Origin: Oscillospiraceae bacterium
Lineage (GTDB): Bacteria > Bacillota > Clostridia > Oscillospirales > UBA929
DNA: 36,082 nucleotides
Reading direction: 5' to 3'
NCBI GenBank assembly: GCA_031554075.1
Contig: JAVBKJ010000110.1
Span: forward strand, 1 to 36,082
In this document: positions 4,682-23,966 of the stretch, piece after piece
Layout of the letters: every line of letters begins with the position of its first letter
How positions within the stretch are numbered: position 1 is the stretch's first letter
Made by a program: the position numbers and the translations under genes
Notes under the pieces: model-generated
What the model was told of the DNA's origin: nothing
Seen by the model: only the letters and a program-made list of their open reading frames with translations
The model's database searches: none

Positions 4682-6313
4682 TTACTTGGCGGCTAGGATA
4701 TGCTCCAAATCTTCTTGTGCTGTGGCAATATGCTTTAGCTTAAAGTTATCAACCAACAGCTGTAACACATTCGGGCTCACAAACGCGGGTAGCGTTGGTC
4801 CGAGGTACACATTTTGTACATTCAGGTGCAATAGCGCCAGCAACACAGCAACCGCTTTTTGCTCGTACCATGATATAATCATCGAAAGCGGCAAGTCATT
4901 TACCGTGCAGTCAAAGGCATCCGCCAAGGCAAGGGCAATTTTCACCGCAGAGAATGCGTCGTTACACTGACCGACATCAAGCAGACGCGGCAACCCTGCC
5001 ACAGTGCCAAACTCTAAATCGTTAAAGCGATACTTGCCACAGGCAAGTGTTAGGATAATGCAATCCTGCGGCACAGCTTTGGCAAATTCTGAGTAGTAGT
5101 TACGACCCGGGCGTGCGCCGTCGCAACCACCAATAAGGAAAAATCGCTTAATCTGGCCTGCTTTAACAGCGCCAACAATCGCTTCTGCATGAGAAAGAAC
5201 CGCTTTGTGTCCAAATCCGACCGTGATTTCCTTGCGTGGCTCATCCTCTGGGAATCCGCCCAACGACAAGGCTTTTTCGATAATCACTGTGAAATCCTTG
5301 CGTCCATCTGCTTGTCTGGGCACATGCTGCAATCCCTTATGGCTGACGACACTGGTGGTATAGATTCTATCCTTGTAGGAATCTTGTGGGGTCATCAGGC
5401 AGTTTGTCGTCATCAGGATGCAACCAGGCAGGTTGTCAAATTCCTTTTGTTGGTTTTGCCATGCCGTGCCGAAGTTGCCCACAAGATGGGGGAACGCGCG
5501 CAATTTTTCGTAACCATGGGAGGGTAGCATTTCACCATGGGTGTACACATTAATACCCTTGCCTGCTGTTTGCTCTAGCAACATTTCAAGGTCGTATAGG
5601 TCATGTCCCGACACGACGATAAATGGTCCTTTGAGCTTGCGTGTGTTGACAGCGTGTGGCATCGGTGTCGCAAAATGCTCATTATTCGCAGTATCTAGCA
5701 CAGCCATAACAGCGACCGCTTTGTTGCCTGTTTCCAGCATGAGCGGCACGAGCGTATCAAGGCTTAGGGTGTCCTTTGCAATGTCCGCCAGACACGTTAC
5801 ATAGAAGTTGTCCACTGCCACATCGTTATAGTCAATCGCACGTGCTTGGTGACCATACGCGGCGATACCTTTTAGCCCATAGACAATCGTCTCACGGACA
5901 GAACGGACGTCGGCATCCATGGTTTGGTCAAACATAATGCCAGCACGCTCTGCGTCGCCTTCTGTGGTGTCCTTGTTAAAATTAAACGTCGCGTACTCGC
6001 TTGTGAGCGTCGCTCCAGTTTTCTTGCGCAGGGCCTCTTTCAACACTTGTGACTGCTCCAAGAGTGCGATGTGCGATGCCTCGTCGAAGTTGACATTTGT
6101 GAGGGTTGTAAATAACGCATCCTCAATAAAAACAACTACATCCGTTGGGGCATCCTGTCCTTTTTGAATTAGTTCATTGGCATACAACGCCAACCCCTTG
6201 CATTGATAAATCAGCAAATCCTGTAATCCTGCCACGGTATGGGTTTTGCCGCAAACACCTTGCTTTGTGCACCCCTTGCCGCCAGCGGTCTGTTCACATT
6301 GATAACAAAACAT
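4682..6313 (-). CDS. hcp: hydroxylamine reductase / hybrid-cluster protein
   Basis: N-terminal MFCYQCEQTAGGKGCTKQGVCGK is the Hcp cysteine motif. Length is 543 aa. GAGGAGGT lies 7 nt upstream of the ATG. Confidence 0.95.
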   Translation of the reverse strand: MFCYQCEQTAGGKGCTKQGVCGKTHTVAGLQDLLIYQCKGLALYANELIQKGQDAPTDVVVFIEDALFTTLTNVNFDEASHIALLEQSQVLKEALRKKTGATLTSEYATFNFNKDTTEGDAERAGIMFDQTMDADVRSVRETIVYGLKGIAAYGHQARAIDYNDVAVDNFYVTCLADIAKDTLSLDTLVPLMLETGNKAVAVMAVLDTANNEHFATPMPHAVNTRKLKGPFIVVSGHDLYDLEMLLEQTAGKGINVYTHGEMLPSHGYEKLRAFPHLVGNFGTAWQNQQKEFDNLPGCILMTTNCLMTPQDSYKDRIYTTSVVSHKGLQHVPRQADGRKDFTVIIEKALSLGGFPEDEPRKEITVGFGHKAVLSHAEAIVGAVKAGQIKRFFLIGGCDGARPGRNYYSEFAKAVPQDCIILTLACGKYRFNDLEFGTVAGLPRLLDVGQCNDAFSAVKIALALADAFDCTVNDLPLSMIISWYEQKAVAVLLALLHLNVQNVYLGPTLPAFVSPNVLQLLVDNFKLKHIATAQEDLEHILAAK

Positions 6314-6389
6314 AGTAAATACCTCCTCATTCCATTATAGTATAATAGTTTTTACAAAAACTATGTACTCAGAGTATACATCGTCCGAC

Positions 6390-6425
6390 GCGCAATGTCT
6401 GTTGCAATTGCAACAGACATTGCGC
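6390..6425. promoter_or_regulatory. 36-bp perfect palindrome in the hcp / DUF3810 divergent promoter region; candidate operator
   Basis: GCGCAATGTCTGTTGCAA|TTGCAACAGACATTGCGC has 18-nt arms and no spacer. It lies 77-112 nt upstream of the hcp ATG. Confidence 0.45.
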
Positions 6426-6543
6426 CAACATAAAACTTTTTGAGAGAACGTCCAATAAATAACAGTATCTATATTGCACAATGTATGCTACACTATGGGT
6501 ATATTTTTGAGCATTGTTGACCTAATGTTGATGAGGTGATGCG

Positions 6544-7632
6544 ATGAAACGACGTATTGGGGCAGTGATTGCGGTTTGGGTTGCCGCCATAATTCCGTTT
6601 TTCTGGGCGGCACGCGGGTCTGTCGATTTTTCAGACAGGTATGCCTCCGCTAGCAGAAGCTTTAACGCAGTTTTATCTCGTGTGACAGGGCTTGTGCCGT
6701 TTAGTGTTGGCGAATTTGGCGTGTACGCGGTCATACTCGCCTTTGCGGTGGGATGGGGCATTCTACTCTACCGATTGCGTCATGAGCTTTCTCCTGCCAA
6801 GCGAATCGGGCGCGGTCTTTTAGCGACCGCATTTGCCGCAGGCATACTGGTCTGTACTTTTGTCTGGTTTTGGGGGTTGCATTACGTCTGCCCACCTCTT
6901 AGCCAACAGTTGGGGCTATCGCCCGCCCCGCAAACCGTGCAATCCTTAACCCAAGCGGCGACAATTTATCGCGACGAGCTAAATGAACTCTGTTTGACAG
7001 TGCCGCGCACGCCAGAGGGGACAATGGCGGCAGGTGACTTTCAAACCACCGCTCGTAAGGTGCAAGAAAGCTATGACACCCTGTCAGCCACCTACCCCTT
7101 TATTGTAACAGGTGGCGCACCACCCAAACGTATCACCGCGTGGTTTATTCAATCCTATACAGGTATTTCAGGCGTTTACATACCATGGACAGCGGAGGCG
7201 TGCGTGAATCCCGATACGCCCTGGCCCACACTTCCCGCCACGATGGCGCATGAATTAGCGCACCGTCAGGGCGCGGCGGCAGAGGACGAAGCAAATTTTT
7301 TCGGTATTCTCGCCTGTGAGGCCTCGTCTGACGAATCCGTCCGCTATAGCGGCGCGTTTCTCGCCTTTTTGTACACCGCGAACGCGCTTGCGCCGCATGA
7401 CCCTGCGGCACATAGTGCGCTGTGGGAAGGGTTACAGCCCGAAGTAGTGGCAGATATGCGTGGTCTGGTGGCGCACAACGCAAAGTATGAAGGACCAATC
7501 GCAGCGGCGGGCAATGCGGTTAATGACACCTATCTTAAAGTGATGTTGCAGGAAGACGGCGTTAACAGCTATGGACGTGTTGTGGATTTATTGCTTGCCA
7601 AGCTAATCGCAGACAAACGGATTGTTGGCTAA
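6544..7632 (+). CDS. DUF3810-like membrane protein with an HEXXH metalloprotease motif
   Basis: N-terminal TM segments; the MAHELAHRQG motif followed by EDEANFFGILAC and RYSG. GAGGTGA precedes the ATG. Confidence 0.7.
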   Translation: MKRRIGAVIAVWVAAIIPFFWAARGSVDFSDRYASASRSFNAVLSRVTGLVPFSVGEFGVYAVILAFAVGWGILLYRLRHELSPAKRIGRGLLATAFAAGILVCTFVWFWGLHYVCPPLSQQLGLSPAPQTVQSLTQAATIYRDELNELCLTVPRTPEGTMAAGDFQTTARKVQESYDTLSATYPFIVTGGAPPKRITAWFIQSYTGISGVYIPWTAEACVNPDTPWPTLPATMAHELAHRQGAAAEDEANFFGILACEASSDESVRYSGAFLAFLYTANALAPHDPAAHSALWEGLQPEVVADMRGLVAHNAKYEGPIAAAGNAVNDTYLKVMLQEDGVNSYGRVVDLLLAKLIADKRIVG

Positions 7633-7816
7633 GTTTACATCACCGCACTGTCGATTGTGTCGCGTATGAAATGACGCACTGCCGCCAATACTACACCTAC
7701 ATAGAGTCGCATGATTTCTCAGCTGTGGCACTGCCGCAAGACTTGGCAACGCCGCGTCCTAACGAATGTTGGTATGTTTAGGGAGAAATCCTATTACGTC
7801 GCGTGGAGGGTTTGTC

Positions 7817-8266
7817 ATGAAAATGACTAATGTAGAATACGGTAAGTTTGCGCAGGCGCAGTCGCCTGCGTCACCACTAGGTCGCAATATGCTGTGGGCG
7901 TTTGCTGTTGGCGGCTTGATTTGCACCATCGGGCAAGGGCTAAACAGCCTGTATATGGCATGGGGGCTTACCTCGGAGGCGGCCAGCATGGCTGTGCCGA
8001 TTACGCTTGTATTTGTTGGTGCGTTCCTAACAGGGATTCATCTGTTTGATGATATTGCAAAATTTGCAGGTGCGGGTACGCTTGTGCCCATCACAGGCTT
8101 TGCCAACGCTATGGTGTCGCCTGCGATGGAGTTTAAGAGCGAGGGTCTCGTCATGGGGCTGAGTGCGCGTATGTTTAGCATCGCAGGGCCTGTACTCGTG
8201 TTTGGCATTTCCACCTCGGTGTTGTACGGGCTTGTGTTAGTGCTGCTGCAAGCACTGAAACGCTAA
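7817..8266 (+). CDS. spoVAC: stage V sporulation protein AC
   Basis: AFAVGGLICTIGQG, VPITGFANAM and KSEGLVMG match B. subtilis SpoVAC. Length is about 149 aa from MKMTN. GGAGGG lies 6 nt upstream of 7817. The track start is 7766. Confidence 0.85.
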   Translation: MKMTNVEYGKFAQAQSPASPLGRNMLWAFAVGGLICTIGQGLNSLYMAWGLTSEAASMAVPITLVFVGAFLTGIHLFDDIAKFAGAGTLVPITGFANAMVSPAMEFKSEGLVMGLSARMFSIAGPVLVFGISTSVLYGLVLVLLQALKR

Positions 8267-8298
8267 CCTTTTTGTGCATTGCGTTTCTGCCTAACTCT

Positions 8299-8340
8299 AT
8301 GGTATAATGGTCATACTTTGACTGTTATACCATTTTTTTA
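8299..8340 (+). terminator. intrinsic terminator after spoVAC
   Basis: ATGGTATAA (8299-8307) pairs with TTATACCAT (8325-8333), followed by a T7 run. The left arm also contains an extended -10-like TGGTATAAT that could serve the next gene. Confidence 0.5.
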
Positions 8341-8426
8341 TGGCAGTGCTGTTGTTCTTAGCTGTCAACATGGATAGCAGACGGATTTTCCGCAAGATGC
8401 AAACACTATATACGAAGGAGACATGC

Positions 8427-9614
8427 ATGGACAAACTAAAACACTGGTGGAAGTACGCTATTCCTTTTGCACTTGGTGTGCTTGTGTTCGCATTTATCAC
8501 GCAGTATGACCAAACGATACACATGTTAAATTCCATCTTAGGCGGTATCGTGTTTATTTTGGGTCGCTTTGCGATTGGGTTTGGCATGGCATACTTTTTG
8601 AACTTTCCCATGCGGTTTATGGAGCGTCGTCTTAAATTTAGACGTTGGCTCAGCTTTTCGCTCACCTACTTACTGTTAGCAGGTATCCTCGTACTGATGT
8701 GGTTTGTCGTTGTGCCTGCGCTCGTGGACAGTGCCCAGCAAATACGCGGCTTGCTACCCAAGTATTATCTTAACGCACAAAAACTGGTGGACGACTACTT
8801 CTCGACACTGACAGAAGCAAACCAAGTAACCTTACGTAATTTTATCAGTCAAGCGTCAATCACCATTACAAATTACGCGACAGACTTGCTAAAGGTCAGC
8901 TATGTCAGCCAATTCCTAGAAGATTTCTTGCGTAGCTTCACCAATATTGCCTTTGGTACGCTAATTTCCATGTATGCTCTTTGGACAAAGGAAAAAATCG
9001 TGCTTACCATCAAACAGTTGCTGTACGCCCTATTCCCCACCCATGTGGGCGACACCACGTTACGCATTTCCAGAGAAGCACACAAAAACTTTTCACAATA
9101 TATCGTCGGTATGGTGTGGGTTTCTGTTTGTGTGGCTATCCTTAGTTTTATAGTGTTTATTATTTTCCGCATACCGATTGCGCCGTTTTTATCCGTTGTC
9201 GCGCTCGTGTGCAATATGATACCCTATTTTGGTCCCTTTATGTCTGGTGTGATCACAGGGGTTGTGCTGCTTGTCTTTGGTCCTATGTATGCGCTGATTG
9301 GCGTTCTCATCGTCATTGTCATTCAGTGTATTGACGGTGCTATCATCAGCCCCAAAATTTTAGGCGATTCCGTGGGGATCAGCCCCCTATTAACGCTAAT
9401 TTCCATTACCGTGGCAGGCGACCTCTTTGGCTTATTGGGTATCTTTCTCGCTGTCCCTGTTGTCGGCACACTAAAGCATGTGGTGTTTGATAAGTTTATC
9501 AATGCGCGCCTTTCCTCACACGGGCTTGACCTCGTTGCTCCCGACGCACACCCTGCGCCCCCCATGCCCACATCGCCTCGTAGTAACGACAAGGGGGACC
9601 CCCCTGTTGCCTAA
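8427..9614 (+). CDS. AI-2E family transporter (PerM/UPF0118)
   Basis: Polytopic membrane protein with the C-terminal GLLGIFLAVPVVGTLKHVV motif typical of the family. I chose the start at MDKLKHW (8427) because GAAGGAGA lies upstream. The track start is 8340. Confidence 0.8.
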   Translation: MDKLKHWWKYAIPFALGVLVFAFITQYDQTIHMLNSILGGIVFILGRFAIGFGMAYFLNFPMRFMERRLKFRRWLSFSLTYLLLAGILVLMWFVVVPALVDSAQQIRGLLPKYYLNAQKLVDDYFSTLTEANQVTLRNFISQASITITNYATDLLKVSYVSQFLEDFLRSFTNIAFGTLISMYALWTKEKIVLTIKQLLYALFPTHVGDTTLRISREAHKNFSQYIVGMVWVSVCVAILSFIVFIIFRIPIAPFLSVVALVCNMIPYFGPFMSGVITGVVLLVFGPMYALIGVLIVIVIQCIDGAIISPKILGDSVGISPLLTLISITVAGDLFGLLGIFLAVPVVGTLKHVVFDKFINARLSSHGLDLVAPDAHPAPPMPTSPRSNDKGDPPVA

Positions 9615-15862: not shown

Positions 15863-17521
15863 TTAGGGAACAATGTAGCCAGCGTCTTTTAGAATTTGTT
15901 TTGCTTCTGCCATGTCAGCAACAGGATCGCCAGAGCCGAAGTAGTTACCACCGTTAGTACGGAAGTCGCCGCCGTCAGCATCAACAAAGCCGCCTGGAAC
16001 AAACGCGTAGGCAGGTTGTGCATTGTTCTTGACAACGTCGATAACGTCTTGACGGTCAATCGCTAGTGCCAATGCCTTACGAATGGCTGGGTCTTGCATA
16101 GCTGGATCTTCCATGTTAACGGAAGCATAGTAGACACCTAAAGAGGAGTCGATTTCAAAGAAACCAGCAGTTTTCATACGGTCTGTTTCTTCAGATGGGA
16201 AGGTTTCGCAGATATCAATTTCGCCAGTCTCAAACGCAGCCAAGGCAGCAGCATCGTCGTCTGTCAGCCAATTGATAACTTTTGGGCAAAGTACGTTTGC
16301 AGCATCCCAGTATTGGTCATTTTTCTCAAGCACCATCTTGTCTTGTGCGGTGTAAGAGGTAATTTTATAAGCACCATTAACAATATAGGTTTCTGCTTTG
16401 TTCGCCCAGCCTTCGTTAGCGACAATGTCCTCACGTACTGGGTAGTATGTTGGGAAAGCAACCATTTCGGTGAAGTAAGCGCAAGGACCAGCTAGGACGA
16501 TTTCTAGGGTTTTGTCGTCAATAGCCTTAACGCCAAGGGTTTCAGGAGCGGCTGTGCCAGCGATAATCTCAGAAGCACCCTTGATGTATTCCATTTGGTA
16601 CGCATATTCAGCACCAGTAAGTGGGTTGACTGCGCGCTTCATAGCAAATTCAAAGTTTTGAGCTGTTACTGGCTTGCCATCAGACCACTTTGTATCACGC
16701 AGATGGAATGTCCATGTAAGACCATCAGCAGAGATATCCCAGCTTTCGGCAACGGCAGGGACAATTTTACCATCTTTATCACGGCGAGTTAAACCGTCAA
16801 AGCACTGTTGGATGACAGAAGCACCATCAGTTGCGTTGTTTAGCGCGGGGTCAAGAGACTTAGGGGTAGCACCCAATTGATAGTTAATGGGCGTGCCATC
16901 AGCCTTGGAGGCCCACTTGAAGTTCAAGTGATTAATCAGCGCATCATGGGTAGCACCTGTCACTTTGTGGTTGTTTAGGCGCAAATCTGTGTAGTAGTAA
17001 ATTGGCAACACAGCAAAGGATTCGACTAACAACTTTTCAGCATCGTGCATTGCTTGCATACGAACAGCAACGTCGTTGGAAGCCTTAGCGGTTTTGATTA
17101 GTGCGTCAAATTCTTCATTCTTGTAGTTAGGGTCATTTTGTGCAGAGTAGGATAGGAATAAATCCAAGAAGGTCATTGGGTCGATGTAGTCGCCCAACCA
17201 GCCGTGACGAGACACCATGTAGTTGCCTTCGGTACGTGAAGTTTGGAACACAGCCCACTCTTGGTTTTCAATGGTGACATTGAAGCCAAGCTCACCCCAG
17301 TAAGCTTGTAGTAACTCAGCAATTTGCTGATGTCCTGCGTTTGTGTTAAAGATGTACTTGATTTCTGGTAGTGGCTTAGGTTCAGCAGTTGCTGGTGTAG
17401 CTTCCACTGCTGGGGTAGCGTCACCAGTTGGGGACGCTTCGGGCGCTGCGGCAGGCGCACAGGCAGCCATAACACCCATTAGCATCAAAGCAGCTAACAG
17501 AATTGAGAATGTCTTTTTCAT
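15863..17521 (-). CDS. oppA: peptide ABC transporter substrate-binding lipoprotein (family 5 / OppA-type), circularly permuted
   Basis: Signal peptide with a VMAAC lipobox, then an Ala/Pro/Thr linker. The motifs NTNAGHQQIAE..W..LGFNVTIENQEW, GWLGDYIDPMTFLDLF and LPIYYYTD come BEFORE INYQLGATPKSLDP, FDGLTRRDKDGKIVPAVAESW and WSDGKPVTAQNFEF. Confidence 0.85.
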   Translation of the reverse strand: MKKTFSILLAALMLMGVMAACAPAAAPEASPTGDATPAVEATPATAEPKPLPEIKYIFNTNAGHQQIAELLQAYWGELGFNVTIENQEWAVFQTSRTEGNYMVSRHGWLGDYIDPMTFLDLFLSYSAQNDPNYKNEEFDALIKTAKASNDVAVRMQAMHDAEKLLVESFAVLPIYYYTDLRLNNHKVTGATHDALINHLNFKWASKADGTPINYQLGATPKSLDPALNNATDGASVIQQCFDGLTRRDKDGKIVPAVAESWDISADGLTWTFHLRDTKWSDGKPVTAQNFEFAMKRAVNPLTGAEYAYQMEYIKGASEIIAGTAAPETLGVKAIDDKTLEIVLAGPCAYFTEMVAFPTYYPVREDIVANEGWANKAETYIVNGAYKITSYTAQDKMVLEKNDQYWDAANVLCPKVINWLTDDDAAALAAFETGEIDICETFPSEETDRMKTAGFFEIDSSLGVYYASVNMEDPAMQDPAIRKALALAIDRQDVIDVVKNNAQPAYAFVPGGFVDADGGDFRTNGGNYFGSGDPVADMAEAKQILKDAGYIVP

Positions 17522-17574: not shown

Positions 17575-18546
17575 TTAAGCCTTTTGCGGCTTTACATCGT
17601 GGCACGCCACAAAATGCGCAGGGGCAACCTCTAGCAACTCTGGTATCGTTTGGCGGCAGATATCCATCGCTCTAGGGCAACGGCTGGCAAACGCACAGCA
17701 GGCGGGGGGATTCACGGGCGTTGGGACGTCACCCTGCAAAATAATGCGCTTATTGGCTTTTGCGGCATCGGGGTCGGGCAACGGAATGGCCGACAGCAAC
17801 GCAATGGTATAGGGGTGCAGTGGCTGACTATACAGGGTGTCAGACTCAGTAAGCTCCATCATATGCCCCAGATACATAACGCCTACGCGGTTTGAAATGT
17901 GCTGCACCATCGACAAGTCGTGAGCAATAAACAGGTATGTCAACCCTTTTTGCGCTTGCAAATCCTCCAACAGGTTCACAACCTGCGCTTGGATAGACAC
18001 GTCAAGCGCCGAGATAGGTTCATCGCAAACAATCAGTTCAGGGTCCGAGGCGAGCGCACGCGCACTGCCAATACGCTGACGTTGACCGCCAGAAAACTCA
18101 TGGGGATAGCGAGACGCATGAGAACGCGCCAAGCCAACTGATTCGAGCAATTCAAAAATCTTTTTCGTGCGCGCTTCCCCTTTGTACAAGCGGTGGATGT
18201 CAATCGGCTCTGCGACGATGTCACCAACAGGCATACGGGGGTTCAAGGACGCATAGGGGTCTTGAAATATAATCTGGATTCTGCTGCGGTAGGGCATTAA
18301 GCCACGAGTACTCAAACGGGCAATATTCGCACCGTCAAAGTAAATATCGCCGCCCGTTGGCTTATAAAGACGGACAATCGAGCGCCCGACAGTTGTTTTA
18401 CCACAGCCAGACTCGCCGACCAAGCCGAGTGTTTCCCCTTTATGAATGGCAAACGAGACATTATCGACTGCTTTTAATGTGCCGCCCTTCACCTTAAAAT
18501 ACTTTTTAAGGTTCTGAACGTCAATGAGAACTTCATTACTTGACAT
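17575..18546 (-). CDS. oppF: oligopeptide ABC transporter ATP-binding protein
   Basis: Walker A GESGCGKTT, signature FSGGQRQR and Walker B LIVCDEP. The C-terminal Cys-rich oligopeptide-type extension is present. Confidence 0.9.
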   Translation of the reverse strand: MSSNEVLIDVQNLKKYFKVKGGTLKAVDNVSFAIHKGETLGLVGESGCGKTTVGRSIVRLYKPTGGDIYFDGANIARLSTRGLMPYRSRIQIIFQDPYASLNPRMPVGDIVAEPIDIHRLYKGEARTKKIFELLESVGLARSHASRYPHEFSGGQRQRIGSARALASDPELIVCDEPISALDVSIQAQVVNLLEDLQAQKGLTYLFIAHDLSMVQHISNRVGVMYLGHMMELTESDTLYSQPLHPYTIALLSAIPLPDPDAAKANKRIILQGDVPTPVNPPACCAFASRCPRAMDICRQTIPELLEVAPAHFVACHDVKPQKA

Positions 18547-18547
18547 G

Positions 18548-19558
18548 TTATACCTCCGCCTTTGCCGCCGCTAACCGTTCTGCGGCATCAGGATGATGCA
18601 GCCAGCAGGTAGCCCGATGCTCTGTTCCAACTGTAAAGAACGGCGGTTGTTGGTCTAGGCACACACGCATCGCATGAGGGCAACGCTGTGCAAAGCCGCA
18701 TCCAACAGGGGGCTTAATTAAATCTGGTGGTTGTCCGTCAATCGGCACAAGCCTTGTGCGTGTACCAATCGTCACTCGGGGGATGGATTTGAGCAAGCCC
18801 CAAGTATAGGGATGTGCTGGCTGGTAAAATATATCGCGAATGGGCGATTCTTCGCAAATCAGCCCAGCGTACATAACCTTTACTTCTTCGCAAAGGTCGG
18901 CAACGACGCCTAAGTCATGCGTAATCAATATAATAGATGTTTGGAATTTTGTTCGCAAATCCTTCATTAAGTCCAAAATCTGTGCTTGTATGGTAACGTC
19001 CAACGCGGTCGTTGGTTCGTCTGCTATCAGCAATTGCGGATTATTAGCAAGCGACATCGCAATCATAGCGCGCTGACGCATACCGCCAGAAAATTCGTAC
19101 GCATACTGCTTAATACGCGTGGCAGGGTCAGGAATCCCTACCAGACCGAGCATTTCAATACTGCGCTCGCGGATTTCCTGCTTGGACATGCCGCGGTTAT
19201 GCTCTTTTATCGCCTCGTGCATTTGATTGCCAATGGTGTACACGGGGTTGAGTGAGGTCATTGGGTCCTGAAAAATCATAGCAATGCGATTGCCACGTAT
19301 GGTGCGCATTTCTTTATGTGTCTTTTTGAGTAGGTCATTGCCCTCAAAGATAATTTCGCCGCCTACCACCTTACCAGGTTGGGGAATCAGCCCCATAATA
19401 CCCATAGAGGTAACGCTTTTGCCGCAACCAGACTCGCCGACAAGCCCCACGGTTGAATTGGGCTTGACTTTGAAGTCGATGCCACGCACAGCTTTCACTT
19501 CGCCTACGCTCGTAAAGAAGCTGACTTTCAAATCTCGAATATCGAGTATATGTTCCAT
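18548..19558 (-). CDS. oppD: oligopeptide ABC transporter ATP-binding protein
   Basis: Walker A GESGCGKSV, signature FSGGMRQR and Walker B LLIADEPTTALD. Confidence 0.9.
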   Translation of the reverse strand: MEHILDIRDLKVSFFTSVGEVKAVRGIDFKVKPNSTVGLVGESGCGKSVTSMGIMGLIPQPGKVVGGEIIFEGNDLLKKTHKEMRTIRGNRIAMIFQDPMTSLNPVYTIGNQMHEAIKEHNRGMSKQEIRERSIEMLGLVGIPDPATRIKQYAYEFSGGMRQRAMIAMSLANNPQLLIADEPTTALDVTIQAQILDLMKDLRTKFQTSIILITHDLGVVADLCEEVKVMYAGLICEESPIRDIFYQPAHPYTWGLLKSIPRVTIGTRTRLVPIDGQPPDLIKPPVGCGFAQRCPHAMRVCLDQQPPFFTVGTEHRATCWLHHPDAAERLAAAKAEV

Positions 19559-19571
19559 GTGCCGCTGTGCC

Positions 19572-20543
19572 TCACTTTCTCATCTTTGGGTCTAACGCAT
19601 CACGCAAACCATCACCCAAGATGTTAAAGGCTAACATGGTGATACTAATGGCTGCCGCAGGGAAAAATAATAGGTGCGGTGCGCTTTGTAACGCTTTGTA
19701 TGATTCACTGCACAACGAACCCCATGAAGCCATGGGTGCGCTAACACCAATGCCCAAAAAGCTCAAAAATGCTTCGGTAAAAATCGCAGAGGGAATGGCC
19801 ATAGTAACCATAACAATGATGGGTCCAATAGAGTTTGGCACAAGGTGCTTCATAATCATACGGATTGTCTTTGTGCCTTGGCTGCGCGCCGCCATAACGT
19901 ATTCTTGATTTTTAAGGGACAATACTTGACCGCGTACCACGCGCGCCATGTTGACCCAGAAAACCAAGCCTAACACTAAATAGACCAAAATCAGCTGATA
20001 CCCCAGCGGCTTAAACATCATCCAAAACGGATTCGTTTTGAAAGCGTCCTCTATGGGTGCTTGCAGCGTAACCTGCAGGAGGATAACATACAGAAGCATT
20101 GGGATAATATACAAAATTTCAACAATACGCATCATGAGGTTGTCAAGCCAACCGCCGATGTAGCCCGAAATACCGCCGTAAAGAACGCCGATTGTCAGGT
20201 TAATCAAGCTGGCAACAATACCAATGGATAGCGAAATACGAGCGCCGTATACCACACGGATAAACAAATCGCGCCCCAAGGCATCTGTTCCAAACACATG
20301 CTCAGACGACGGTCCTTGGTTTCGGTCTGCACGTATTTGTTGCTTATAATCATATTTCCAAAAAAACGGAATGACTATACTACCAACAATTAGAAAAATA
20401 ACAGCCACCATGGCAATCATAGACGGTACGTTTTTGCGAAGTCTGCGCCACGCATCCTGCCAGTAGGTAAGAGAGGGGCGGACAATAATGTCCCCTTTTT
20501 CCTCTGCAGCAACTGGTTCGAGCATTTCTCTTGTTAAGTTCAT
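19572..20543 (-). CDS. oppC: oligopeptide ABC transporter permease
   Basis: BPD-type permease. I chose the start at MNLTREM (20543) because GGAGG lies upstream and it begins 5 nt after the oppB stop. The track start is 20591. Confidence 0.85.
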   Translation of the reverse strand: MNLTREMLEPVAAEEKGDIIVRPSLTYWQDAWRRLRKNVPSMIAMVAVIFLIVGSIVIPFFWKYDYKQQIRADRNQGPSSEHVFGTDALGRDLFIRVVYGARISLSIGIVASLINLTIGVLYGGISGYIGGWLDNLMMRIVEILYIIPMLLYVILLQVTLQAPIEDAFKTNPFWMMFKPLGYQLILVYLVLGLVFWVNMARVVRGQVLSLKNQEYVMAARSQGTKTIRMIMKHLVPNSIGPIIVMVTMAIPSAIFTEAFLSFLGIGVSAPMASWGSLCSESYKALQSAPHLLFFPAAAISITMLAFNILGDGLRDALDPKMRK

Positions 20544-20547
20544 TTTG

Positions 20548-21486
20548 TTACGCCTCCGATTCCCCACCCATACGAATACGGGGGTCAACAAACATATAGA
20601 TAATATCTACAATAAACGTCATAATAACCAATAACACTGCGTCAAAAATCGTGACACCCATAATCATCGTATAGTCACGATTGCTGATAGATTCAACGAA
20701 CATGCGACCAACGCCAGGAATGGTAAAAAACTTTTCGATAACAAATGAGCCTGTTAAGAGCGTGGCAATCATCGGCCCGATGTAAGTAACAACAGGCATA
20801 ACGGCATTCTTAAATGCGTGTTTCATGATAACCTTCACTTCCGAAATACCCTTGGCACGGGCGGTACGCACATAGTCCTGTTGTGTTACGTCAAGCATGG
20901 ACGAGCGCATGAGCCGCACAATAAAGGAAAGTGAGTAGCCCGACACCGCGAGAACAGGCAACACCATCGCCATAGGATTATCCAATGAGGACGAAATGAC
21001 AGGAAACCACGGCAGTTTTATCGCAAAGACGTAGATAAGTAGCATCGCAAGCACGAAACTAGGGATGCAAACACCAAATGTGGTAATAAACATTATAAAC
21101 GAATCTGCCGGCTTATTCTGCTTAAGGGCGGCAATAACACCAAGCGGTATCCCAAGCACCAACACGACAATAATGGCTACCCCGCCTATTTTAGCAGTGT
21201 GAGGTAAGCCGCTCATAATACGGTCAGTTACCTGCACGTTGGCAAGCTGGAACGAGGGTCCCATATCGCCTTGGAGCAACCCAAACAAGTAATCGGTGTA
21301 CTGCTCAAACAGCGGCGCATCTAAATTAAATTTTTCATTAAGTGCTTTTACAATAGCTTCGGGAAGCGGACGTTCGCGCGTAAATGGTCCGCCGGGTACT
21401 GAGTGCATTAGAAAAAATGTAATTGTAATAATACACAGTAGTGTCAGAATCATCGATCCAATGCGTTGTAAAACAAATTTTAGCAT
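20548..21486 (-). CDS. oppB: oligopeptide ABC transporter permease
   Basis: MLKFVLQRI...VPGGPF N-terminus and the ARAKG EAA-loop region, both typical of OppB/DppB. Confidence 0.9.
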   Translation of the reverse strand: MLKFVLQRIGSMILTLLCIITITFFLMHSVPGGPFTRERPLPEAIVKALNEKFNLDAPLFEQYTDYLFGLLQGDMGPSFQLANVQVTDRIMSGLPHTAKIGGVAIIVVLVLGIPLGVIAALKQNKPADSFIMFITTFGVCIPSFVLAMLLIYVFAIKLPWFPVISSSLDNPMAMVLPVLAVSGYSLSFIVRLMRSSMLDVTQQDYVRTARAKGISEVKVIMKHAFKNAVMPVVTYIGPMIATLLTGSFVIEKFFTIPGVGRMFVESISNRDYTMIMGVTIFDAVLLVIMTFIVDIIYMFVDPRIRMGGESEA

Positions 21487-21624: not shown

Positions 21625-21653
21625 TTGCAAAATAATTTACTTTGGATTATACT
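21625..21653 (+). promoter_or_regulatory. sigma-A type promoter of the guaA-like gene
   Basis: TTGCAA at 21625-21630, a 17-nt spacer, then TATACT at 21648-21653. This predicts a 5' UTR of about 80 nt. The track's upstream ORF start at 21642 falls inside this promoter. Confidence 0.5.
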
Positions 21654-21737
21654 AGAGGTGCGCTAAGGCAAGTGCCGTGTCAATGCGGTTTTTGCTGCAG
21701 GATAATTGCAGCACACACACAAAGGAGAAGGAATAGA

Positions 21738-22961
21738 ATGGATACCATAGCAATTTTGGATTTCGGCGGTTTCAATAGTCACCCTGTCACAAGGCAAGTT
21801 CGTCAGCTGGGCGTTTTTGCCGTCCTATTGCCATATACTATTAATATATCTGCGCTTACAGACTATCGCGGACTTATCTTAGTCGGCGGTTCTGGCAAGG
21901 AGCTCACTGCCGATTTCGCCACATTGTCGCTCCCTCTGCTAGATATTCGCGGCGACGCGCCCTGTCACGAGACATTGTTACGAGACTTTGCGCTGACACA
22001 ATGCGCCTGCCAAACCGAATGGGATATGCAGTCCTACGCCACGAAAGCCATCGCCACTATTAAGGATACCGTGGGTGAGGGACGTGTTGTCTGCGCACTT
22101 TCGGGTGGTGTGGATTCCGCTGTCTCCGCCTTGCTGGCACATAAAGCGATTGGCGACCGTCTTACCTGCTTGTTTGTTGACCACGGTTTGATGCGCAAGG
22201 ATGAAGGCGACCAGATTATGTCCGTATTTTGCGACCGTTTCCAGATGAATGTCCTTCGTGTCGATGCTGGCGCACGCTTTTTGTCGGCACTGGCGGGCGT
22301 TGACAACCCCGAACAAAAGCGCAAGATTATCGGCGAGCAGTTTATCCGTGTATTTGAGGAAGAGGGGCGCAAGCTAGGGCAAGTCGAATACCTCATGCAG
22401 GGTACGATTTATCCCGATGTTATCGAAAGCGGCTTGGGCACAGGCGGCGTTATTAAAAGCCATCATAATGTGGGCGGCTTGCCTGCGGTTATTGACTTTA
22501 AGGGCATCTTAGAGCCGTTGCGCGATTTATTTAAGGACGAAGTACGCGACTTAGGGCGTGTATTGGGTCTGCCCGAGGATATCGTGGGGCGTCAACCCTT
22601 TCCAGGACCTGGTCTTGCCGTACGCTGTCTTGGGGAAGTGACTGAGGCTAAGCTGTCCATTTTGCGCGAAGCCGATGCCATCTTCCGTCGTCACATGATA
22701 GACGCGAAGGTGTCGGCTGACCAATTTTTTGCCGTGTTGACAAATTTGCGCAGTGTGGGTGTCAAAGCCGAACAGCGCACGTATGATTACACCATTGCCC
22801 TCCGCGCTGTGAAAACCACTGATTTTATGGCGGCACAATGGGTGCCTGTCCCCTTCGAAGTGTTACGCGCCGCCTCGACTTCGATTACGGAACTAACAGG
22901 CGTGAACCGCGTCGTGCTGGATGTGACGGACAAGCCCCCCTCGACGATAGAGTGGGAATAG
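21738..22961 (+). CDS. guaA: GMP synthase homologue with an intact ATP-pyrophosphatase and dimerisation region but a vestigial glutaminase domain (407 aa)
   Basis: SGGVDS P-loop, FVDHGLMRK, KSHHNVGGLP, RQPFPGPGL and C-terminal KPPSTIEWE are present. The N-terminal ~95 aa keep ILDFGG and GLILVGG but lack the GICYGMQ Cys and the HPE His/Glu. AAGGAGAAGG precedes the ATG at 21738. Confidence 0.85.
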   Translation: MDTIAILDFGGFNSHPVTRQVRQLGVFAVLLPYTINISALTDYRGLILVGGSGKELTADFATLSLPLLDIRGDAPCHETLLRDFALTQCACQTEWDMQSYATKAIATIKDTVGEGRVVCALSGGVDSAVSALLAHKAIGDRLTCLFVDHGLMRKDEGDQIMSVFCDRFQMNVLRVDAGARFLSALAGVDNPEQKRKIIGEQFIRVFEEEGRKLGQVEYLMQGTIYPDVIESGLGTGGVIKSHHNVGGLPAVIDFKGILEPLRDLFKDEVRDLGRVLGLPEDIVGRQPFPGPGLAVRCLGEVTEAKLSILREADAIFRRHMIDAKVSADQFFAVLTNLRSVGVKAEQRTYDYTIALRAVKTTDFMAAQWVPVPFEVLRAASTSITELTGVNRVVLDVTDKPPSTIEWE

Positions 22962-23052: not shown

Positions 23053-23937
23053 TTATTTTAAGTCCAGTGTTATCTGATAAGGTTCTCCCATTGATTTTTT
23101 AAAAAGTCGTTCAAATTCATCCCATGTATCAGATGCTTTCATTAAAGCGATTGTCTGTTGTAGCTGCCTATCAAGATTTGGTATCCCTGTGTCCTTAGTG
23201 AGGTGTTGGTGGTATCTTTCTTTACGTTTGCCTTTGTTAATACCTTCTTTGGACTTTTCCTTTAATTCTTTAAGAACACCCGGTGGTAAATAGTCATAAA
23301 TATATTCATTGGTTAATTTACCAGCATATGGAGGCTTGCTTTTTCCACGATATTCCCACCCTCTTAGTCTAAACATTTGTTTATAAAACTCGTCCGGAAA
23401 TCGTTTTGTCCAAGGTAATAATTCTTCGCTAATATATTTTGATAAGATTTTCTGTAATTCGTTCCTATCGCGCTCCTCTTGATATCCAGTAACTTCATCA
23501 ATTACTGCAATCAAACCGACTTTAGCAAATGCTGTCATTATGCCGTAAAGCTTTTGTGCAATTTCTTTTTGTGAATCAAGATTCAATGAATTAGCGTGCA
23601 AAGCATCAACGTATGCCTTGCATAAATCAACAAAAAGAGATGCTTCAAAAGGTGTAAAGTTCCTGCCTTTATCAGTAAGGTAATTAGGCAGTTCATTTCT
23701 ACCTGCCATATATAGCCACTCTTTAAGTGGTTCACTCAAGTACGGACTTATCCATTTTGCGTTCAAGTTACGAACGAGCGCGCCGCTTCCGCCACCTTGT
23801 AAACCCATTGTTTTAGATGCGCCTCTTAAAGACAAAACTCTTTCACCGTTATCCATTACATAACACTGCATTGTTAGAGAACCTTCTTCATTTAAAGACC
23901 AATTTCCACTATGTGTTGCTTTTGGCATATTTGACAT
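23053..23937 (-). CDS. P63C domain-containing protein (phage-derived family, function unknown)
   Basis: WTKRFPDEFYKQMFRLRGW ... YAGKLTNEYIYDYLPPGVLKEL ... RYHQHLTKDTGIPNL matches my recollection of the P63C domain pattern. GGGAGAAG lies 7 nt before the ATG at 23937. The track's TTG start is 23952. Confidence 0.7.
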   Translation of the reverse strand: MSNMPKATHSGNWSLNEEGSLTMQCYVMDNGERVLSLRGASKTMGLQGGGSGALVRNLNAKWISPYLSEPLKEWLYMAGRNELPNYLTDKGRNFTPFEASLFVDLCKAYVDALHANSLNLDSQKEIAQKLYGIMTAFAKVGLIAVIDEVTGYQEERDRNELQKILSKYISEELLPWTKRFPDEFYKQMFRLRGWEYRGKSKPPYAGKLTNEYIYDYLPPGVLKELKEKSKEGINKGKRKERYHQHLTKDTGIPNLDRQLQQTIALMKASDTWDEFERLFKKSMGEPYQITLDLK

Positions 23938-23966
23938 AATATCTTCTCCCAATATAATTTAAAAAT

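Follow-up and report, generated by a model that had tools for sequence, protein, structure and literature searches.

The 36,082-nucleotide stretch of DNA analyzed here (contig JAVBKJ010000110.1 of the Oscillospiraceae bacterium assembly GCA_031554075.1, hereafter the window) carries on its minus strand, at 15863..17521, an uninterrupted open reading frame (ORF) which, according to the ORF list and its translation, encodes 552 amino acids (aa) and whose product is a genuine circular permutation of the peptide-binding protein OppA; we call the gene oppA(cp). All results read jointly make it highly probable that this is a lipid-anchored peptide receptor of the OppBCDF transporter, and a natural OppA permutant, for which we propose a single origin by duplication and a later return of two lineages to the canonical order. 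The reversed order of blocks within one uninterrupted ORF had been noticed in a first-pass annotation of the window, and all of the motifs which it quoted were found at the residues it gave.

The block that canonical proteins carry in their C-terminal part (block A) here stands ahead of the block that they carry in their N-terminal part (block B). A phmmer search against PDB sequences aligned residues 209-523 of the window protein with residues 19-344 of Bacillus subtilis OppA (8ARE), and residues 48-189 with residues 365-508 of the same chain. The same swapped, two-part alignment was obtained with DppE (8AY0), MppA and the OppA proteins of Y. pestis, E. coli and Salmonella. The first-pass annotation had predicted that a permutation would give two matches to Pfam SBP_bac_5 (PF00496) with swapped hidden Markov model (HMM) coordinates, and exactly this was obtained: the protein scores 286 bits (E = 6e-85; cut-off 32.4) and the match is not collinear, since residues 252-549 correspond to HMM positions 1-278 while residues 51-129 correspond to positions 288-367, the latter match being obtained by scanning the block A stretch alone. 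When the protein was rotated in silico (residues 207-552 followed by 48-206) the same model gave a single collinear stretch, HMM 1-367, with 297.5 bits. The NCBIfam equivalog model for enterobacterial OppA, NF011684, was matched in two stretches with 314.7 bits and its cut-off of 947 was not reached; by this measure the window protein is a family-level relative and not an equivalog of E. coli OppA.

The place of the cut is well defined. Canonical proteins carry a loop of the form '...AKKLLAEAGY-PDGKG-FPxIxLxYNT', and here the protein ends with '...AKQILKDAGYIVP', inside the loop that in canonical proteins leads to block A, and the mature part starts with 'PKPLPEIKYIFNT'. The canonical 'AGY-PDGKG-FP' loop is thereby divided between a C-terminal '...AGYIVP' and an N-terminal 'PKPLPEIKY...', with no residues lost or doubled. 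Together with the single match after rotation, this sustains the earlier description of the gene as a clean circular permutation rather than a truncation or fusion. The N-terminal MKKTFSILLAALMLMGVMAAC with Cys21, judged by inspection, fits a bacterial lipoprotein signal, i.e. a lipobox with its invariant Cys. Coordinates of the parts of the gene and of its neighbors in the operon are collected in Table 1.

Table 1. Features of oppA(cp) and of the adjoining opp genes, in window coordinates.
Feature	Position	Strand	Evidence
oppA(cp), circularly permuted OppA-type substrate-binding lipoprotein, complete gene	15863..17521	-	ORF/translation, PF00496, PDB phmmer; stop codon 15863-15865
Signal peptide and lipobox, residues 1-21, MKKTFSILLAALMLMGVMAAC	17459..17521	-	Sequence inspection; lipidation predicted at Cys21
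Ala/Pro/Thr-rich flexible tether, residues 22-47	17381..17458	-	pLDDT <50 for residues 1-44 of the AlphaFold2 model
Block A, residues 48-206, canonical OppA ~358-520	16904..17380	-	Alignment with 8ARE 365-508 and 2Z23 358-505; Pfam HMM 288-367
Junction ADGTP, residues 207-211	16889..16903	-	Old C-terminus (...FKWASK) joined to old mature N-terminus (INYQLGATPKSLDP)
Block B, residues 212-552, canonical OppA ~19-355	15866..16888	-	Alignment with 8ARE 19-344 and 3TCF 21-355; Pfam HMM 1-278
oppF, ABC ATPase with oligo_HPY C-terminal region	17575..18546	-	Pfam ABC_tran + oligo_HPY
oppD, ABC ATPase with oligo_HPY	18548..19558	-	Pfam ABC_tran + oligo_HPY
oppC, permease	19572..20591	-	Pfam OppC_N + BPD_transp_1
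oppB, permease, first operon gene	20548..21486	-	Pfam BPD_transp_1_N + BPD_transp_1

The permuted order is not restricted to the window. Relatives were searched in 5.8 billion clustered proteins, and among the best 120 matches, which were inspected, 24 further clusters possess the permuted order and align with the query end to end, with 43-67% identity in block A and 51-64% in block B. Conservation of the order in a clade had been left to be checked by the first-pass annotation, and the order proved common to these 24 clusters from independent assemblies, deposited in NCBI, ENA, JGI and Logan and including contigs of 0.65-1.06 Mb; the named records are uncultured Eubacteriales/Bacillota metagenome-assembled genomes. 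One cluster, P0006, is present on eight contigs of up to 1.06 Mb; the oppA DNA of three of them is identical and so uninformative on synonymous-only variation. A profile scan of contigs gave at least one clearly collinear locus, L008, among the matches listed. The junction is 5 aa long in 22 of the 25 clade members and 4 aa in the other three, and it is rich in Asp, Glu and Gly throughout, including the deep branches P0024, P0028 and P0134. The proteins end 3-6 residues past the 'AGY' motif and their tethers are between 5 and 35 aa long. In 21 of the 25, i.e. in all with an intact N-terminus (P0040 by eye), a lipobox-like tetrapeptide is followed by a Cys located within positions 18-24, and three members are truncated N-terminally.

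An artefact has to be considered here, namely that misassembly, or a gene-calling error over a tandem pair, merged two oppA copies into a chimeric ORF in which the 3' part of one copy continues into the 5' part of the next. Tandem oppA genes do occur in relatives and the window seems to be a product of contig assembly; against this, the order, the junction length and the ends recur in the 24 clusters, neither a stop codon nor intergenic sequence nor a second signal peptide occurs at the junction, base composition is even along the gene, no notable internal DNA repeats were found in it, and the gene is under purifying selection. We consider this explanation effectively refuted, with a negligible chance of being right. 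Purifying selection on the permuted oppA is evident from the closest pair compared at the DNA level, P0005 and P0006, for which the ratio of nonsynonymous to synonymous divergence (dN/dS) is 0.076/0.578 = 0.13. Fission followed by fusion was rejected as an origin: separately encoded halves were not found, and the 'halves' P0040 and P0067 lie on contigs of 1.2-3.2 kb and were probably cut by contig ends.

Structure prediction is in accordance with an intact fold. The AlphaFold2 model, built from an alignment of 23 permuted sequences, has a predicted local distance difference test score (pLDDT) of 88 and a predicted template modelling score of 0.83, only residues 1-44 are disordered, and pLDDT exceeds 90 over residues 198-215, which span the junction. 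B. subtilis OppA and DppE came on top when the model was compared with PDB by Foldseek (E about 5e-28, ~360 columns, template modelling (TM) score 0.54-0.60 with this sequential aligner). No PDB chain aligned collinearly with the model beyond ~396 columns, most reaching ~360, and such short coverage is expected because the aligner is sequential. A control model of the canonical sister P0011 (about 62% identical) aligned over 517 columns with DppE 8AZB (TM 0.93) and over 519 columns with OppA 8ARE (TM 0.83). Fold likeness was assessed through this control and through rotated secondary-structure (DSSP) strings: after rotation, 481 of the 504 aligned positions of the window protein and P0011 agree (95.4%), while unrotated strings can be aligned over 345 positions. 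His64, Arg105 and Asp111, all carried by block A, align by phmmer (2Z23 alignment) with the positions of OppA His371, Arg413 and Asp419, which in Salmonella numbering we take to be the residues that bind the peptide termini. In the permuted family Arg105 and Asp111 are invariant and His64 is at least 90% conserved.

These data also bear on the possibility that the gene is a decaying, rearranged oppA which neither folds nor binds, and that another binding protein serves OppBCDF. Only 36 kb of the genome are in view and further oppA copies may exist elsewhere, which speaks for such a relic; it is opposed by conservation over the full length (in the permuted family the columns are on average 68% identical and about 90 of them are invariant), the dN/dS given above, the invariant ligand-anchoring Arg105 and Asp111, the confident predicted fold, and the fact that in every clade locus examined the permuted gene is the sole binding-protein gene adjoining oppBCDF. 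A relic is therefore very improbable. From the sequence one would infer an ordinary Venus-flytrap oligopeptide receptor delivering peptides to OppBC, and the model leads us to expect a fold, two hinge crossings and a peptide cleft like those of ordinary OppA.

The proposed path of the chain would begin with the signal peptide and the lipidated Cys21 and continue through a flexible tether of ~26 residues to the middle of the second lobe, entered at about canonical residue 358, just ahead of the strand with the ligand-contacting His. From there it would proceed to the canonical C-terminus, through the 5-residue junction to the canonical N-terminus and the first lobe, and end at about canonical residue 355. 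If domain I of Salmonella OppA comprises residues 1-44, 169-270 and 487-517, domain II residues 45-168 and domain III residues 271-486, as we presume, then the cut lies inside one lobe and the join inside the other, and the two lobe crossings should stay unchanged. The predicted physical difference is limited to the tether, as the lipid anchor would leave domain III instead of domain I.

Two of the best matches to the query, P0011 (574 aa) and P0023 (557 aa), are of canonical order and yet, over the two blocks, are as close to it as permuted proteins are (61-62% and 55-56% identity, respectively). In a neighbor-joining tree of canonical and rotated permuted sequences (200 bootstraps) the group of permuted proteins with P0011 and P0023 received 98% support and monophyly of the permuted proteins alone 0%. 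Permuted P0009 and canonical P0011 were sisters (94%), and P0023 was joined to the group of permuted P0016 (100%). The same groupings came from blocks A and B taken separately, with support of 76% and 91% for joining P0009 to P0011 and of 92% and 96.5% for joining P0023 to the P0016 group. A concatenated OppC, OppD and OppF tree of the same loci (930 columns, 300 bootstraps) supported the ingroup with 100%, P0009 with P0011 with 99%, P0023 with P0016 and P0127 with 88%, and a permuted-only group with 0%. In these trees canonical P0011 and P0023 nest inside the permuted clade, with independent backing from oppCDF. The loci of P0009 (L088) and P0011 (L004) are orthologous, with identities of 60% for oppB, 68% for oppC, 74% for oppD and 81% for oppF, and share a neighboring EAL/HDOD gene (68% identity). 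The signal peptides of these two proteins, MKKTRILALLLAVVMLVALLGACG in permuted P0009 and MMKKTRILALLMAVALLVGLLGACG in canonical P0011, are nearly identical, which indicates that the signal peptide stays in place while the mature blocks swap. We also observed that at L004:3991-7314 oppF is separated from oppA by a gene for an LRR/Big_2 protein, the EAL/HDOD gene and a 188-aa ORF, while at L088:8750-11975 oppA directly follows oppF and the EAL/HDOD gene lies past oppA; a local rearrangement goes along with the difference in block order. A 445-aa ORF after oppF in L004 was considered as a remnant of OppA and ruled out, as it encodes the LRR/Big_2 protein.

How the two orders came to be intermingled can be explained in several ways. 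Because the junction is uniform across subclades, including the deep P0024, P0028 and P0134, a single origin of the junction is favored, with either one permutation and two returns (three events in total) or a long coexistence of both forms. On the first of these accounts the permutation would have been a single event at the root of a clade of uncultured Bacillota/Eubacteriales, and the P0011 and P0023 lineages would later have gone back to the canonical order. It could instead be that the canonical order was kept along the backbone of the clade, surviving in P0011 and P0023, and that five or six separate events each cut one and the same loop and joined the same termini. The wider family does show recurrent permutation, with type 2 representatives (described below) only 38-44% identical to each other and 50-69% to canonical relatives, P0252 was cut at the same loop with an unrelated junction, and the cut-site loops of P0023 and P0011 resemble those of the outgroup; but five or six events are required instead of three, all 25 permuted clade members share the 4-5-aa junction rich in Asp, Glu and Gly, and demonstrably independent events have junctions of 5, 7, 9 and 12 aa, those of type 2 varying by about 3 aa. 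Persistence with repeated permutation is in our view unlikely.

Slightly less unlikely, though still a minority possibility, is that canonical and permuted paralogues coexisted after one permutation, were homogenized blockwise by gene conversion and then differentially lost. This would account for the uniform junction as well as for the ancestral-looking loops of P0011 and P0023, and an operon of the wider family (L094) holds a type 2 permuted and a canonical oppA in tandem; yet no genome or contig of the present clade was seen with both forms, the L094 pair is only ~51% identical with no sign of conversion, and the oppCDF topology matches that of oppA, as expected under simple vertical descent of one locus.

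One permutation with two later reversions remains the reading which we prefer, and several points weigh against it. The trees are all neighbor-joining trees. The cut-site loops of P0023 (GAGIP) and P0011 (GKALP) keep a Gly, like the canonical G(K/E)GFP of the outgroup, which fits ancestral retention as well as it fits reversion, and is in keeping with coexistence, independent permutations or convergence. P0252, cut at the same loop and with an unrelated 12-aa junction, is evidently independent, so that a single origin is not certain. Within this clade we found neither a partially duplicated intermediate (A-B-A or B-A-B, ~700-900 aa) nor any remnant, at the DNA level, of a block that had been lost.

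As for the mechanism, the mature coding part could have been duplicated in tandem in frame, or fused, and the redundant 5' and 3' portions then lost, with the original signal peptide retained throughout. This is the permutation-by-duplication model, in which duplication or fusion takes place in place, new ends remove the redundant parts and functional duplicated intermediates are predicted (PMC3320104). The tandem-duplication origin given in the first-pass annotation holds up as plausible, with indirect support from tandem oppA pairs (L010, L023 and L094) and from fused B-A-B-A proteins. The canonical pairs at L010:5821-9377 and L023:4813-8727 are located in Peptostreptococcaceae and Clostridium genomes, and show that adjacent oppA duplicates are common in relatives. 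Such pairs and the fused arrays described below are the substrates and intermediates which the model requires, none of them from the window's own clade.

Searches for traces of the event were negative. A tblastn search of the protein against the window returned only the gene itself, and the 147-nt downstream spacer was empty. Two apparent remnants after stop codons were attributed to chance, as their local DNA alignments were no better than those of shuffled sequences: 'AE*GHPLN' in canonical L006, compared with the junction 'ADGTPIN', and 'TA*SSAYN' in L004, compared with its own N-terminal 'GDSSAIYY'. Five proteins of ~680 aa (P0148, P0158, P0180, P0183 and P0275) were rejected as A-B-A intermediates, all of them being of canonical order with unrelated N-terminal extensions.

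To look at the family more widely, 1.84 billion representatives at 50% identity were searched exhaustively by phmmer and five query segments (B1, B2, B3, A1 and A2) were mapped by BLAST on the 148 newly returned matches; the survey covers representatives and is not a full census. Canonical order was found in 105 of the 148, and several others are rotated, at different places. Type 1a (A-B, cut at HMM ~279-287) comprises this clade, its deep member P0134 and P0252. In type 1b the order is also A-B and the cut lies one helix earlier, at HMM ~253 (P0151, P0156/P0282 and P0240). Type 2 is B3-A-B1B2, cut at HMM ~209 (P0137, P0153, P0165, P0167 and P0186), type 3 is B2B3-A-B1, cut at HMM ~57-60 (P0160 and P0171), and type 4 is A2-B-A1, cut beyond the Pfam model (P0242, P0254, P0277 and P0250). 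Pfam coordinates confirm types 1-3; type 4 is assigned from the BLAST segment map alone, and for P0254 Pfam gives one collinear match. On the domain boundaries given above, the cut of type 2 is probably at or near the inter-lobe hinge and would leave a single lobe crossing. Permutants of types 1-3 of ordinary length, and P0250, begin with a signal peptide and lipobox Cys, and P0160 starts within its signal peptide. These permutants are real genes located in opp operons; P0282 occurs on 22 contigs, in an oppA-oppBCDF arrangement. Loci of permutants with other cut sites are L094 and L095. L094, the locus of P0137 (GCA_964511875.1), contains oppBCDF followed by a type 2 oppA at 6001-7656 and a canonical oppA at 7796-9445, the two being 51% identical, so a single genome has both orders side by side.

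Every permuted representative can be paired with a canonical relative at 44-69% identity. Examples of such pairs, permuted member first, are P0165/P0199 (69% and 61%), P0186/P0251 (63% and 58%), P0153/P0139 (60% and 60%) and P0156/P0161 (62% and 58%). As type 2 representatives are divergent (38-44% mutual identity) with junctions of differing length, and close canonical relatives exist, the order seems to have been switched many times. Proteins in which binding units are fused in tandem were found as well: P0132 (1238 aa, B-A-B-A, with a lipoprotein signal peptide), P0140 and P0185. Such fused proteins may be intermediates of permutation. There are two to about five SBP_bac_5 units per chain in P0131, P0133, P0132, P0140, P0185, P0202, P0205, P0206, P0220, P0226 and P0270, of which P0131 (2704 aa) and P0133 (2843 aa) are very long. 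In P0254 (870 aa), P0242 (865 aa) and P0277 (1123 aa) the C-terminal ~75 residues have moved ahead of the other blocks and are themselves preceded by a long N-terminal extension. The S-layer homology (SLH) domains of P0254 suggest anchoring to the cell wall rather than to lipid.

The scope of permutation, as far as sequences indicate, is far wider than the window gene. It may be, with about equal chances for and against, that permutation in cluster-C proteins is both recurrent and reversible, with at least five permissive cut sites (HMM ~57, ~209, ~253, ~279-287 and one beyond the Pfam model), with orders switching at 50-70% identity, and with multi-SBP fusions perhaps as intermediates.

Permuted cluster-C proteins were thought to be undescribed when the window was first annotated, and this is in line with our search of open-access full text, in which we found permuted forms described neither for OppA or DppA nor for cluster-C binding proteins in general. 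Canonical cluster-C proteins (B. subtilis OppA 8ARE/8ARN and DppE 8AY0/8AZB, and Salmonella, E. coli and Yersinia OppA 1OLA, 3TCF and 2Z23) are homologous to the window protein over the whole mature length, with phmmer E values of about 1e-88 and 31-34% identity in Foldseek alignments. It shares with canonical OppA the PF00496 domain, residues aligned with the ligand-anchoring Arg, Asp and His, the OppBCDF partners with oligo_HPY ATPases and the predicted secondary-structure elements, and it is a lipoprotein as are the binding proteins of other Gram-positives. It differs from canonical OppA in starting at about residue 358 and ending at about 355, in old termini fused by five residues, and in a tether predicted to leave from the opposite lobe.

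The closest precedent, TpMglB-2 (Tp0684) of Treponema pallidum, is a cluster-B glucose-binding lipoprotein and the founder of the proposed permuted subclass 'Type Ic / Cluster Bc', with homologues that come mainly from organisms whose binding proteins are tethered; three strands of its N-lobe are displaced by the permutation, a fourth hinge crossing is needed, and as the permuted part is at 13% identity its authors could not exclude acquisition from another gene (PMC4990184). Both are natural permutations of a ligand-binding lipoprotein of an ATP-binding cassette (ABC) transporter, and TpMglB-2 keeps its bilobed fold and ligand binding. TpMglB-2 binds sugar and has no sequence homology to OppA. 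Compared with the 13% of its permuted part, both blocks of the window protein are 50-60% identical to canonical relatives. No homology of the window protein to cluster-B proteins of the MglB type was found, all matches in sequence and structure being to cluster-C binders of peptides or nickel. It stands outside 'Cluster Bc / Type Ic' as a cluster-C counterpart which, by analogy, could be called 'cluster Cc'. For DNA methyltransferases and saposin/swaposin the same route of permutation by duplication was proposed (PMC3320104). Unlike those families, the present one consists of secreted lipoproteins, so that the signal peptide must stay 5' while the mature part rotates, and the nesting of canonical forms within the permuted group suggests that the order has switched both ways.

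Judged by sequence, the protein is a real, conserved and apparently functional permutant of OppA and a new topological variant of a known family. Its inferred function is ordinary, and the added interest comes from the nested canonical forms and from the recurrent permutation at multiple sites. It adds a topological subclass to the cluster-C binding proteins, for which cluster-B TpMglB-2 is the sole natural precedent that we found in the open-access literature. The nested canonical forms and the many permuted/canonical pairs at 50-69% identity offer a natural system for the origin and reversion of permutations and the viability of intermediates, the tether, predicted to sit on the other lobe, is a natural experiment on tether geometry in docking to the translocator, and those who engineer OppA-type biosensors by permutation or domain insertion have natural guides in the cut sites and the 5-residue join. 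If permutation is indeed recurrent and reversible, this would be among the most permutation-prone natural families and a natural map of the places where a large bilobed receptor tolerates new termini. Such proteins are split or cut short when annotated by domains, and pipelines may under-call them or label them as fragments.

In the window, oppA(cp) is the last gene of an oppB-C-D-F-A operon on the minus strand, with oppBCDF immediately upstream. The first-pass annotation was right in placing the gene last in an oppBCDFA arrangement; the arrangement itself is common in canonical relatives too. Permuted oppA comes immediately after oppBCDF in the window as well as in the loci of P0006, P0005, P0002 and P0009; at the P0016 locus and at L008 it is convergent with oppFDCB. 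As called mechanically, the oppC ORF starts with TTG and has 44 nt in common with the 3' end of oppB, and the true start of oppC is probably an internal codon further downstream.

Divergent from oppB, on the plus strand at 21642-22961, lies a 439-aa ORF with an NAD_synthase-like ATP-pyrophosphatase domain and a GMP synthase C-terminal domain. A glutamine amidotransferase domain was not detected in it, which may reflect either a split GMP synthase (subunit B type) or a wrong mechanical TTG start. P63C domains are associated with phage and mobile elements, and one is present in a 299-aa ORF at 23053-23952 on the minus strand, located between a guaA-like gene and a pfkB-family kinase gene.

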